Origin: Escherichia coli
Lineage (GTDB): Bacteria; Pseudomonadota; Gammaproteobacteria; Enterobacterales; Enterobacteriaceae
Direction: 5' to 3' (one strand)
NCBI RefSeq assembly: GCF_013315695.1
Contig: NZ_CP054353.1
Length of the DNA: 64,000 nt
Shown: positions 9,001 to 12,000 of the stretch, piece by piece
Position numbering within the stretch: the first letter of the stretch is position 1
Layout: every line of letters begins with the position of its first letter
Position numbers: made by a program

Positions 9001-12000
9001 CGCGATGAGAATATTCCTTTCCAGGAGAGTGACGAACCGGACCATTTCCAATAAAACTGGTAATTAAAAAAATATGTGCCTTGAGATTAAACTCGTTTAA
9101 TAAAGGATATACCTGAAACCAGTTGTCAAGGTATCCATCATCAAATGTCAACATAACGCTTTTACGGGGAAGTTTTCCGCCCCGATAAAAAAACTCCAGT
9201 TCATCTGATGACAGTGTTTTCCAGTTGTTTTCAGCCAACCATTTCATTTGTTTCCGGAATGTCTCGGGAGAAAGTGTAACCAGTCCTGGGCAATGGCTGA
9301 CATGATGATACATTAATACCGGAACATGATTTGCTTTAAACAAAATGCCCCCTCCGTTTAAAATTTAAAGTTTCTGGCACCCAGTAAGTAGAGATAAAAG
9401 GAAAGCCTAATAAAGTTGGTGAACTTTATATACTACTAAATCAAACATCAACAATTTATAAACAATAATATATTATCATATCTTTTAAAAACGGCTCACT
9501 AAGAACCTTGAGGTGGCACACTAAATTTAGCTACCTGAACAGAGGTGATATGCTCACCTCAGAACAACACAGGTGCCATAATGAAAAAAGAAATTTCAGC
9601 GCAGAGTTTAAACGCGAATCCGCTCAACTGGTCGTTGACCAGAAATACACCGTGGCAGATGCAGCCAGCGCTATGGATGTCGGCCTTTCCACAATGACGC
9701 GATGGGTGAAACAATTACGTGATGAGCGGCAGGGAAAAACACCAAAAGCCTCCCCCATTACCCCGGAACAAATTGAAATCCGTGAGCTCAGGAAAAAGCT
9801 ACAACGTATTGAAATGGAAAATGAAATATTAAAAAGGCTACCGCGCTCTTGATGTCAGACTCCCTGAACAGTTTTCGATAATCGGGAAACTCAGGGCGCG
9901 TTATCCTGTGGCCACTCTCTGCCATGTGTTCGGGGTCCATCGCAGCAGCTACAAATACTGGAAAAACCGTCCTGAAAAACCAGACGGCAGACGGGCTGTA
10001 TTACGCAGCCAGGTACTTGAACTGCATGGCATCAGCCACGGCTCTGCCGGAGCAAGAAGCATCGCCACAATGGCAACCCGGAGAGGCTACCAGATGGGGC
10101 GCTGGCTTGCTGGCAGACTCATGAAAGAGCTGGGGCTGGTCAGTTGCCAGCAGCCGACTCACCGGTATAAGCGTGGCGGTCATGAGCACGTTGCTATCCC
10201 GAATCATCTTGAGCGACAGTTCGCCGTAACGGAACCAAATCAGGTGTGGTGCGGTGATGTGACCTATATCTGGACGGGTAAGCGCTGGGCGTACCTCGCC
10301 GTTGTTCTCGACCTGTTCGCAAGAAAACCAGTGGGCTGGGCTATGTCGTTCTCGCCGGACAGCAGGCTTACCATGAAAGCACTGGAAATGGCATGGGAAA
10401 CCCGTGGTAAGCCCGTCGGGGTGATGTTCCAAGCGATCAAGGCAGTCATTATACGAGCAGGCAGTTCCGGCAGTTACTGTGGCGATACCGGATCAGGCAG
10501 AGTATGAGTCGGCGTGGAAACTGCTGGGATAACAGCCCAATGGAGCGCTTCTTCAGGAGTCTGAAGAACGAATGGGTGCCAGCGACGGGCTATGTAAGCT
10601 TCAGCGATGCAGCTCACGCAATAACGGACTATATCGTTGGATATTACAGCGCACTAAGACCGCACGAATATAATGGTGGGTTACCACCAAACGAATCAGA
10701 AAACCGATACTGGAAAAACTCTAACGCGGAGGCCAGTTTTAGTTGACCACAACAGACTACCTGAAGGGAGCCGCGGTCGCCTAGCAGTTGCAGTAGCAGG
10801 AGATCATCCAGCCGCAGTACAGGTCACGATGACTCTGGTTAATGATACCGGCTTTGACCCCGTATTTTCCGGCTCTATCGCTGAATCATGGCGTCAGCAG
10901 CCGTGCACACCATCCTATTGTTGTGACTGGGAGGCTGCCACCATGCTTCGCGCTTTCCCTCTGGCGAAAAAGGGAGAAGGACGGGCCCGTCTGCCTTCAC
11001 TTTATGCCAGCTTCGGTAAGCTGGGTGAGACACCGACTCATGAAGATATCATTGATAACAATCGATCCATCAACTGGCCTGTATAACGTGGCTGCCGGTG
11101 ATTAAGAAAGCTGCACCTACCTAAGTAGTAGCAAACGCACACTTTTTAGAAAAATCGATGGTCAGAAACTGGATTAGCAATTCCGTTCCAGGGTTGCTTT
11201 TGATTTACGTTGGCGTCTGATCATTGATTTATCCTCAAAAGCCCAACCTCATTGGTAATGAACCAGCTCCGTGAATGTCCGCTCTGGCACAGAGCGAAAT
11301 TTTTTGATCTCCCCCCCTGAAATCTAAACTTAGTCATGTCACGTTTTTGGGTTTCTAAAATTTTAACTTCGCGTTTTTCGTTGCCGTAAGGGTTATACAG
11401 AAATGTCCGTTAAGCAGAGTTCAAAATTGATTGCCGTGATCACGACTGGTTTGAAAGCCGCGCCCAAGCCTGTACAGCTCTGGTTTGCGTTGATTATGAA
11501 CCTGTCAGCCTAAAGCAAGCGGATGGACGATGAGTATTGGTAATCTTTCAGAGTCCGGAAAAGTTCAGCCCCAGTCTGAACAGGCTTGCTGGTGCCAGTC
11601 CAGTTTCATTCAGTCGTGGTTTGGTTCTTACGGCCTGTGCAATCTACCTCATTAGGCACATCGGCCTGCCAGATACCGGCTCGGGGTGTATTTCCGCTTC
11701 CACGCTGAATACTGTTCTCAGCAATCCTGGGGTCATCACCTCTTCTGGTGTGCCTTGCGCCATAACATGTCCGTTTGCCATTACCACCAGTTGATCGCAG
11801 TACCGGCTAGCCTGATTAAGGTCGTGCAGCACAGCGACCACCGTTTTCCCCTGAGTCCGGAGTTCGCCCATCAACCGCATCAGGTCCACCTGGTGATTGA
11901 TATCAAGATAGGTGGTTGGCTCATCAAGTAATACAACGGGCGTATTCTGGGCCAGGACCATCGCCAGAAATGCGCGCTGGCGCTGACCGCCGGAAAGCTC

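Follow-up and report, generated by a model that had tools for sequence, protein, structure and literature searches.

Positions 9509-10754 of the window (the whole stretch of 64,000 nucleotides from Escherichia coli contig NZ_CP054353.1 that was analysed) very probably hold a full-length but dead insertion sequence of the IS3 family, of the ISEc52 type and closely related to IS911; we place the probability of this reading at about 0.93. The element is an ordinary one, already known and annotated as a frameshifted pseudogene, and is the counterpart of IS911B/insO in K-12. No evidence against the ISEc52-type identification was met in the analysis. The original prediction had described a decayed IS911 copy at 9509-10750, with at least two frameshifts and probably without its right end; the annotation should instead read as an ISEc52-type (IS911-like) copy that has decayed, with three frameshifts, and retains both ends. 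Beyond this correct annotation, the element is of little importance. The features discussed below are as follows.

9509-10754, plus strand: whole decayed ISEc52-type (IS911-like, IS3 family) element, from alignments to intact ISEc52 and Shigella IS911
9509-9544, plus strand: left inverted repeat, 36 bp, TGAGGTGGCACACTAAATTTAGCTACC..., from comparison with intact copies
9550-9852, plus strand: 100-codon ORF from an upstream ATG at 9550 with GAGGTGAT just 5' of it; start of the PGAP pseudogene CDS (translation)
9581-9589, plus strand: native orfA ATG (9581-9583) followed by an A6 run (9584-9589), lesion 1, from alignment to intact copies
9586-9852, plus strand: OrfA body in the shifted frame, with helix-turn-helix and leucine-zipper region (Pfam HTH_Tnp_1, E=1.3e-13)
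9831-9836, plus strand: degenerate programmed -1 frameshift site, A5G, lesion 2, from alignment to intact copies
9833-10507, plus strand: first segment of orfB, with HTH_21 and the first part of the rve core (Pfam rve, E=2.3e-16; HTH_21)
10431-10432, plus strand: lesion 3, a lost C, from alignment to intact copies
10435-10746, plus strand: second segment of orfB in a third frame, DQGSHY...NAEASFS* (Pfam rve_3, E=1.7e-10)
10719-10754, plus strand: complete right inverted repeat, 36 bp, reverse complement TGTTGTGGTCAACTAAAACTGGCCTCCGCGTTAGAG, from comparison with intact ISEc52
10757-11086, plus strand: flanking yjhV remnant, aa 141-248 (the last 108 codons) of an NAD(P)-binding oxidoreductase of 248 aa, from the K-12 yjhV pseudogene annotation and a homologue

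Identity and boundaries of the element

Within the window there is one copy only of an ISEc52/IS911-like element. Aligned with an intact ISEc52 (copy L004, NZ_CP019905.1 55,0xx-56,2xx), it is 98.9% identical at the nucleotide level over 1246 bp, with gaps at exactly three positions; measured end to end it spans 1246 bp, compared with 1249 bp in intact copies, and the shortfall is accounted for by exactly three 1-bp deletions. The element is 92.5% identical to two copies of Shigella IS911 (L005 and L006, both annotated 'IS3-like element IS911 family transposase' and 99.6% identical to each other). Under ISfinder naming practice, isoforms share ~95% or more DNA identity. By this convention the element would be IS911-like but a different named IS from IS911 sensu stricto: its identity to Shigella IS911 falls short of the near-identity (~95%) expected of an IS911 copy, whereas at least 95% full-length identity to ISEc52 and the same ends are observed, with 35/36 positions shared in the right repeat and a divergent left repeat. 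The assignment to IS911 proper is thus not upheld; an IS911-like, IS3-family element and its start at 9509 (TG) are confirmed. PGAP labels an identical sequence 'IS3 family transposase, frameshifted' and marks the CDS as a pseudogene; 'ISEc52 family' is its name for the element in strain CEA106S and in K-12 derivatives.

IS911 carries 36-bp repeats and produces OrfA and, via -1 frameshifting, OrfAB (PMC2909936). With the IS911 of Shigella dysenteriae and S. flexneri the element shares family, gene organization, the position of the A6G site, 36-bp repeats, CAC at left-repeat positions 9-11, and the 1249-bp TG-to-CA length of the intact form. It differs from IS911 at the right tip, which begins TGAAG... 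in IS911 and TGTTG... here. With intact ISEc52 of enterobacterial plasmids it shares the TG...CA boundaries, the orfA/orfB layout, and the right repeat; it differs in its three deletions, its divergent left repeat, and its lack of a 3-bp target duplication.

The termini are TG at 9509-9510 and CA at 10753-10754, in keeping with the TG...CA ends and imperfect repeats of the IS3 family. The 36-bp repeats pair at 21/36 positions, as compared with 24/36 in intact ISEc52 and IS911, and an inverted-repeat search recovered only the right-repeat core, as a 13-nt arm of 77% among 31 equally weak pairs. Since self-complementarity could not identify the repeats, intact copies served as the reference for placing the ends. 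The right repeat ends in ...GTTGACCACAACA and carries a single substitution (A25T) relative to ISEc52. The same right boundary occurs in four independent intact ISEc52 insertions (L004, L015-L017) and corresponds to the annotated end of IS911B-1 in K-12, at 4509801.

These comparisons bear directly on the alternative that the element is a true IS911 copy truncated at ~10750 and lacking its right terminal repeat. The IS911-type tip ...CACTTCA is indeed absent, the window carrying TGTTGTGGTCAACTAAAACTGG..., the ISEc52 form, in place of the IS911 form TGAAGTGGTCAACAAAAACTGG...; the weak pairing of the ends and the poor repeat-search arm could be read the same way. However, intact ISEc52 copies share the ...CACAACA tip and themselves pair poorly, homology to intact copies extends to 10754, the curated K-12 element shares this end point, homology to the host gene that was cut picks up again at 10760, and identity to true IS911 is low. 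Truncation is extremely improbable, and on the alignment to intact copies we regard that reading as refuted: the right end is complete and the element ends at 10754, not 10750. It had been judged absent because the IS911 tip was expected where the ISEc52 tip is found; taking the wrong close relative as reference (IS911, not ISEc52) can make a complete IS end seem absent.

The left repeat is more divergent. It differs from that of IS911 by 4 transitions (A4G, G15A, G21A, and C24T), matches ISEc52 L004 at 29/36 positions (7 differences), and is 3 changes away from a natural ISEc52 isoform in L024; this variant was seen solely together with the shf-side flank. The 3-bp (sometimes 4-bp) target duplication of the IS3 family was looked for and not found: the left flank reads CCT and the right flank GAC. 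Intact ISEc52 copies L015 and L016 show clean 3-bp duplications (GAC/GAC and GTA/GTA). A scenario in which the element is a two-parent chimera, the shf module contributing an IS911-type left repeat and a resident ISEc52 the remainder, was considered and downgraded: it is weakened because the L024 left repeat lies so near and already has CAC and A15.

Single-base lesions and probable loss of transposase

The IS3-family layout of orfA (helix-turn-helix) followed by orfB (DDE/rve core) is present, with domains in the correct order and spread over three frames. HTH_Tnp_1, HTH_21, rve, and rve_3 together cover positions 1-368 of the NCBIfam transpos_IS3 profile, with positions 1-80 matched by the OrfA body, 89-277 by the first orfB segment (E=1.2e-53), and 305-368 by the second.

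The first lesion is the loss of one A from the run that follows the native orfA start (A6 here, A7 in intact IS911 and ISEc52), which puts orfA out of frame from codon 3, as predicted from an A-run one base short; translation from the native ATG stops after 38 codons. The second replaces the A AAA AAG (A6G) heptamer by A5G, so that orfB now lies in the +1 frame with respect to the OrfA body, instead of -1. The role of A6G in frameshifting and in single-base fusion has been described for IS911 (PMC2909936). A functional -1 frameshift site, a hallmark of the IS3 family, is thus lacking; this represents decay of an IS3 member and is not evidence against that ancestry. The third lesion, a C missing between 10431 and 10432 (TTCCACAGCGATCA to TTCCAAGCGATCA; CAC AGC GAT to CA AGC GAT), accounts for the frame change reported near 10430. 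It hits the His-Ser-Asp codons of HSDQG and breaks the frame immediately ahead of the second catalytic Asp in the DDE motif, parting the region of the first Asp from HSDQG onward, so that the contiguous DDE domain typical of the family is absent. The first orfB segment loses frame after 10431 and stops at 10505-10507; the second retains the native stop at 10744-10746. With the three bases restored in silico, OrfA is 100 aa long and OrfAB 389 aa, free of further stops; the repaired OrfAB is 99.0% identical to the ISEc52 OrfAB and 95.9% to that of IS911.

The earlier count of at least two frameshifts was therefore correct as a bound; the number is exactly three, and the one overlooked is the A5G site. 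The alignment to an IS911 reference that had been put forward as a check gave a divided result, with OrfA and OrfB broken as expected and the right end complete.

Two of the three lesions sit in A-runs, a typical context for error, and it could be argued that the frameshifts are assembly or sequencing errors in homopolymers and that the element is really intact. However, the same alleles occur in independently sequenced strains 042, MS15047, and CEA106S and in plasmid pEC11-5, and in part in HUSEC2011; the deletions at sites 2 and 3 are found in K-12 MG1655 as well; and site 3 lies outside any homopolymer. The probability of such an artifact is negligible.

Three independent 1-bp deletions thus disrupt orfA, the slippery heptamer needed for OrfAB, and orfB, which would leave the element without transposase. 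An element in this state would be unable to transpose by itself, and autonomous transposition has probably been lost, in agreement with the predicted non-autonomous fossil. Its ends might still be used in trans by the OrfAB of an intact ISEc52 or IS911 elsewhere in the cell. The element keeps its two 36-bp repeats and its TG...CA tips, the right repeat has a single substitution, and the matching genome MS15047 shows 5 places similar to the query. Against such mobility, substitutions affect 3-4 positions of the left repeat, among them position 4, close to the cleavage tip, and three positions in the transposase-bound region; all inspected plasmid instances of the variant left repeat share the shf flank, with no sign of movement; and IS911 transposase acts preferentially in cis. 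We consider mobility in trans very unlikely.

An OrfA-like reading frame

Through the deletion at site 1, the OrfA body now shares its frame with an upstream ATG, at 9550, which generates the 100-codon frame at which the PGAP pseudogene CDS begins. The body now ends in ...EILKRLPRS*, the native C-terminus having been replaced. A hairpin can be drawn around ATG 9550, between GAGGTGA (9542-9548) and TCACCTC (9554-9560).

It is conceivable, though we give it very little credence, that the deletion created an expressed OrfA-like protein by fusing the HTH body to the conserved ATG 9550 and its Shine-Dalgarno-like GAGGTGAT. Such a product, a retained 100-aa HTH regulator with a new N- and C-terminus, could act in trans on ISEc52/IS911 copies of incoming plasmids. 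At a site that is fixed in the population, this would be a minor advance towards the domestication of an IS regulator. The frame is open throughout 9550-9852 and retains the entire HTH_Tnp_1 domain, a Shine-Dalgarno-like run lies just 5' of the ATG, and K-12 annotation names insO the 'IS911B regulator fragment.' However, the C-terminal part of the leucine-zipper region is replaced, the ATG lies in a hairpin loop merely 1-3 nt from the Shine-Dalgarno-like run, the region is interrupted or deleted in many strains, and the copies are too alike for a selection test. A promoter and terminator scan, which returned 4 promoter-like sites where 2.4 were expected, placed none within the element. A retained, functional regulator is accordingly a doubtful reading of what appears to be a decayed orfA.

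Two further searches concern the element and its surroundings. An outward hybrid promoter starting from TTGACC in the right repeat was considered and rejected: there is no -10-like hexamer in the flank at 16-18 nt, and the promoter scan showed nothing there. An Rfam scan of 9000-11700 gave only a chance plant-miRNA match (E=0.77).

Insertion site and distribution among E. coli genomes

On the right, the element has cut an oxidoreductase gene. Pfam and NCBIfam searches of the yjhV remnant gave no match; it was identified instead by tblastn against plasmids, in which a full-length Pantoea agglomerans homologue is 80% identical, with homology resuming at 10760. On the left, the N-terminal half of the cut gene is missing, and the shf-capU-virK-lpxM module is found instead. 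Because of this absence, the present left junction is probably secondary; homologous recombination between IS copies, or entry of the shf module with an IS end of its own, probably gave rise to it. Hits with a left flank annotated 'alcohol dehydrogenase catalytic domain' were examined as a candidate for the original left flank, with the missing half of yjhV, and set aside, as they come from another locus, where the IS end is of IS911 type and the gene is unrelated.

Of 5426 complete E. coli genomes, 2627 contain the right junction (IS, yjhV remnant, and fecE) and 464 the left junction (IS and shf island). Present in about half of complete genomes, the element serves as a stable landmark of the fec island; in the source strain it also marks the boundary of the plasmid-type shf-capU-virK-lpxM module with the chromosome, and so helps to trace acquisition of that module. 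Across strains, copies that share this right junction differ in their left flanks and truncations, and mosaic IS911/ISEc52 sequence occurs in K-12 and E2865. These varied flanks and K-12/E2865 mosaics, together with the missing target duplication, fit the earlier suggestion that the element can serve as a substrate for recombination. What role it still has would be passive: it would offer homologous sequence and a target into which other mobile elements can insert, as IS30, IS600, ISEc21, and a group II intron have done at the locus in other strains.

The lesions are unevenly distributed. Strain E2386, which has the same right junction, retains the C at site 3. The site-2 deletion is common to K-12 and the window, but E2865 and the shf-linked plasmid copy L022 have the site intact, a distribution for which gene conversion or recurrent slippage in the A-run must be invoked.

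The closest chromosomal comparison is with IS911B/IS911B-1 of K-12 MG1655 (insO, b4623), an orthologous insertion by yjhV and fecE with an identical right junction and flank. Its sequence is identical to the window element from about position 10245 to the end, and the site-2 and site-3 deletions are shared. In contrast, IS30D and an IS600 remnant split the K-12 copy, which has no equivalent of window positions 9842-9959; over its left ~730 bp it is of IS911 type, with about 7% divergence; site 1 is still A7, and the left repeat is the canonical IS911 one; and its left flank is yjhE, where the window has shf.

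Identity and termini of the element

In a four-way alignment, the element at 9509-10754 shares 98.9% identity with ISEc52 and 92.5% with IS911; the two Shigella IS911 copies share 99.6% with one another. The ISEc52 reference was an intact copy on plasmid NZ_CP019905.1 (L004), the best full-length relative among the plasmid collection (~99%), and the IS911 references, annotated as "IS3-like element IS911 family transposase," came from Shigella dysenteriae and S. flexneri pWR501 (L005, L006). By identity, the element belongs with ISEc52 and not with IS911 proper, as which it had been named in the original prediction; in K-12, the same insertion is curated as IS911B/insO. 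From TG to CA it measures 1246 bp, as compared with 1249 bp in intact copies. It retains the structural hallmarks of the IS3 family (TG...CA tips, imperfect repeats, orfA and orfB domains) and lacks three functional ones (slippery site, contiguous DDE domain, target duplication). The element is real, ordinary, and already known; across hundreds of genomes, automatic annotation calls it a frameshifted IS3 or ISEc52 pseudogene.

In the original prediction, the right terminal repeat had not been found, and truncation of the element was suspected. Self-complementarity is indeed weak; an inverted-repeat search joined the two ends by a sole arm pair of 13 nt at 77% (9513-9525 with 10738-10750), one of 31 that were comparably weak. 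Homology to intact copies nevertheless extends to 10754 (...GTTGACCACAACA). Four independent ISEc52 insertions (L004, L015, L016, L017) stop at the equivalent base and have an identical tip. Past that base, their flanks diverge at once, and two of the four have clean 3-bp target duplications. The right repeat (10719-10754, 36 bp) carries one substitution relative to these copies; its tip is that of ISEc52 (...CACAACA), whereas the expected tip had been that of IS911 proper (...CACTTCA). In K-12, the curated end of "IS911B-1" (4509801) corresponds to 10754, and pseudogene yjhV starts (4509804) at the equivalent of 10757. With homology on the flank side starting again at 10760, no more than 5 nt past the IS end, these comparisons show that the right end is complete and that the end coordinate should be 10754, not 10750.

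The left repeat (9509-9544, TGAGGTGGCACACTAAATTTAGCTACC...) differs from that of IS911 by four transitions and from that of the ISEc52 reference by seven differences. In a natural isoform of ISEc52 (L024, A7 intact), carried by a plasmid of a Plautia stali symbiont, the repeat reads TGAAGTGGCACACTAAATTTGGCCACC; about three substitutions (positions 4, 21, 24) are therefore private to the window's lineage. Of 5426 complete E. coli genomes, 464 have the variant left repeat, which goes with the shf-side flank; within the plasmid collection, 2408 records match, of which only 7 are at least 99% identical, and each of those inspected has the shf flank. Plasmids pTW10598_141, p542099_1, and p89_MLI108-3 have this shf-IS junction too; on the first, an ETEC plasmid, a shorter, more decayed stub follows. 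No target duplication is present at the flanks of the element (CCT left, GAC right). In E. coli E2865, the first eight bases of the left repeat are repeated directly ahead of it (TGAAGTGG followed by TGAAGTGG...; L007 442-457), which may be a stub of another IS end abutting the element.

Three single-base lesions and the broken transposase

Length differences between the window and intact copies comprise three single-base gaps in the window and no others:

Site 1, 9584-9589: A6 in place of A7, immediately 3′ of the orfA ATG
Site 2, 9831-9836: A5G in place of the A6G slippery heptamer
Site 3, between 10431 and 10432: C of TTCCACAGCGAT lost

The original prediction had counted at least two frameshifts, placing orfA out of frame and a frame change in orfB; both are real (sites 1 and 3), while the third, in the frameshift signal, was overlooked. 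Alignment to the references thus bears out the broken reading frames but not the missing right end. With the three bases restored in silico, OrfA comes to 100 aa and OrfAB to 389 aa, free of further stops, the latter being 99.0% identical to ISEc52 OrfAB and 95.9% to IS911 OrfAB. Domain order is correct over three frames (HTH_Tnp_1, then HTH_21 and rve, then rve_3), and these matches together cover positions 1-368 of NCBIfam transpos_IS3. Strains 042, MS15047, and CEA106S, as well as pEC11-5, have the same alleles at all three sites, and HUSEC2011 also has the deletions at sites 1 and 2, ruling out sequencing error as the source of the frameshifts.

IS911-type elements produce OrfA (100 aa) from orfA and the transposase OrfAB via programmed −1 frameshifting, and both proteins bind the 36-bp repeats (PMC2909936). 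In the window, translation from the native orfA ATG ends after 38 codons; the slippery heptamer is gone and the orfB frame is +1 relative to the orfA body; and the catalytic core is split just ahead of the second Asp. From these lesions we infer that transposase production and autonomous transposition would be impossible, in agreement with the earlier description of a fossil. Mobilization in trans is unlikely, given the substitutions in the left repeat and the absence of the element's allele from any other site. What remains would be 1.2 kb of homology to plasmid-borne ISEc52/IS911 copies and a site at which the landing of other mobile elements is tolerated; the variety of states at the locus fits this, as it does the predicted use as a recombination substrate.

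As a result of the site 1 deletion, the OrfA body shares its frame with an ATG further upstream (9550), which is preceded by GAGGTGAT and located in the loop of a conserved hairpin (9542-9548/9554-9560). The resulting predicted open frame spans 100 codons (9550-9852) and begins at the PGAP pseudogene start. A promoter scan found no promoter-like sites inside the element, and an Rfam scan gave no meaningful match. The leader hairpin (9542-9560) is a perfect 7-bp stem enclosing the ATG (GAGGTGA-TATGC-TCACCTC) and is conserved between IS911 and ISEc52; its ATG opens, in intact copies, a short upstream ORF overlapping the orfA start.

States of the element across strains

The right junction (IS end and yjhV) is found in 2627 of 5426 complete genomes, and many element states share it. 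The E2865 copy is full length with other lesions: A7 and A6G are intact, a 3-bp ACA insertion is present, and site 3 is deleted. Other copies are interrupted:

ISEc21: CU42ET-1
IS30: N53
IS600: Ecol_732 and MEI3A-1023
IS30D and an IS600 remnant: K-12
Group II intron (ltrA reverse transcriptase/maturase) at 10268/10269, absent from the window: O104:H4 HUSEC2011, E2386, and an AR_0162 contig (L019, L012, L023)

E2386 retains the site 3 C, which indicates that this deletion arose in place, after insertion. The left part is IS911-type up to ~10245 in K-12 and ~9955 in E2865, and the right part is ISEc52-type; both copies are thus mosaic, which indicates that IS copies have recombined with or converted one another. 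At site 2, the window and K-12 have the deletion and E2865 and the shf-linked copy on p89_MLI108-3 (L022) are intact, a pattern that would reflect either recurrent A-run slippage or an allele moved by conversion.

IS30 occupies the identical base, after GGCTAC and shortly past the frameshift site, in K-12 IS911B and in the ISEc52-type copy on p89_MLI108-3:

Shared IS30 site: window 9842 (element position 334); K-12 locus L003, 7459/7460; plasmid copy L022, 1834

Because the surrounding IS sequence differs between these two copies, the shared position suggests an IS30 hot spot, or common ancestry spread via recombination.

Chromosomal setting and flanking genes

A 1371-bp query across the element matched E. 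coli MS15047 at 100% identity, placing the region on the E. coli chromosome, and many further strains, including enteroaggregative 042, at 99.5-99.9%. Gene order in MS15047 is BCCT transporter, IS3-family transposase, lpxM(msbB2)-virK-capU, polysaccharide deacetylase (shf), frameshifted IS3 pseudogene, 85-aa hypothetical protein, and fecEDCBA-fecRI. Given this match and order, the element is the pseudogene already marked by PGAP (window 9550-10746), labeled "IS3 family transposase, frameshifted." The lpxM(msbB2)-virK-capU-shf module is typical of virulence plasmids of Shigella and enteroaggregative E. coli; here it is chromosomal (5467-9364), with a transposase of the IS3 family at 4147-5286 on one side and the decayed ISEc52 on the other.

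The frame 3′ of the IS (10757-11086) corresponds to the last 108 residues, aa 141-248, of an NAD(P)-binding oxidoreductase of 248 aa; a full-length homolog at 80% identity is found on Pantoea agglomerans megaplasmids. The intact 85-aa "hypothetical protein" called by PGAP at 10829-11086 is probably a fragment call of this yjhV remnant. The N-terminal half is absent from the left side of the element, which argues that the present left junction is secondary.

According to the annotation of MS15047, an identical strain, the fecI-fimC interval (19326-22848) contains only IS debris and a ymgB/ariR-like gene:

19481-20178: IS1 pseudogene
20502-20600: IS3-family fragment
21395-22092: IS1B, abutting fimC

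No fimB, fimE, fimA, or fimI is annotated in this interval; apparently, the type 1 fimbrial operon has lost its switch, major subunit, and promoter. At 46653-48124, downstream of mdtM, a further IS1 pseudogene, which carries a frameshift and an internal stop, adjoins a BrnT/BrnA toxin-antitoxin pair.
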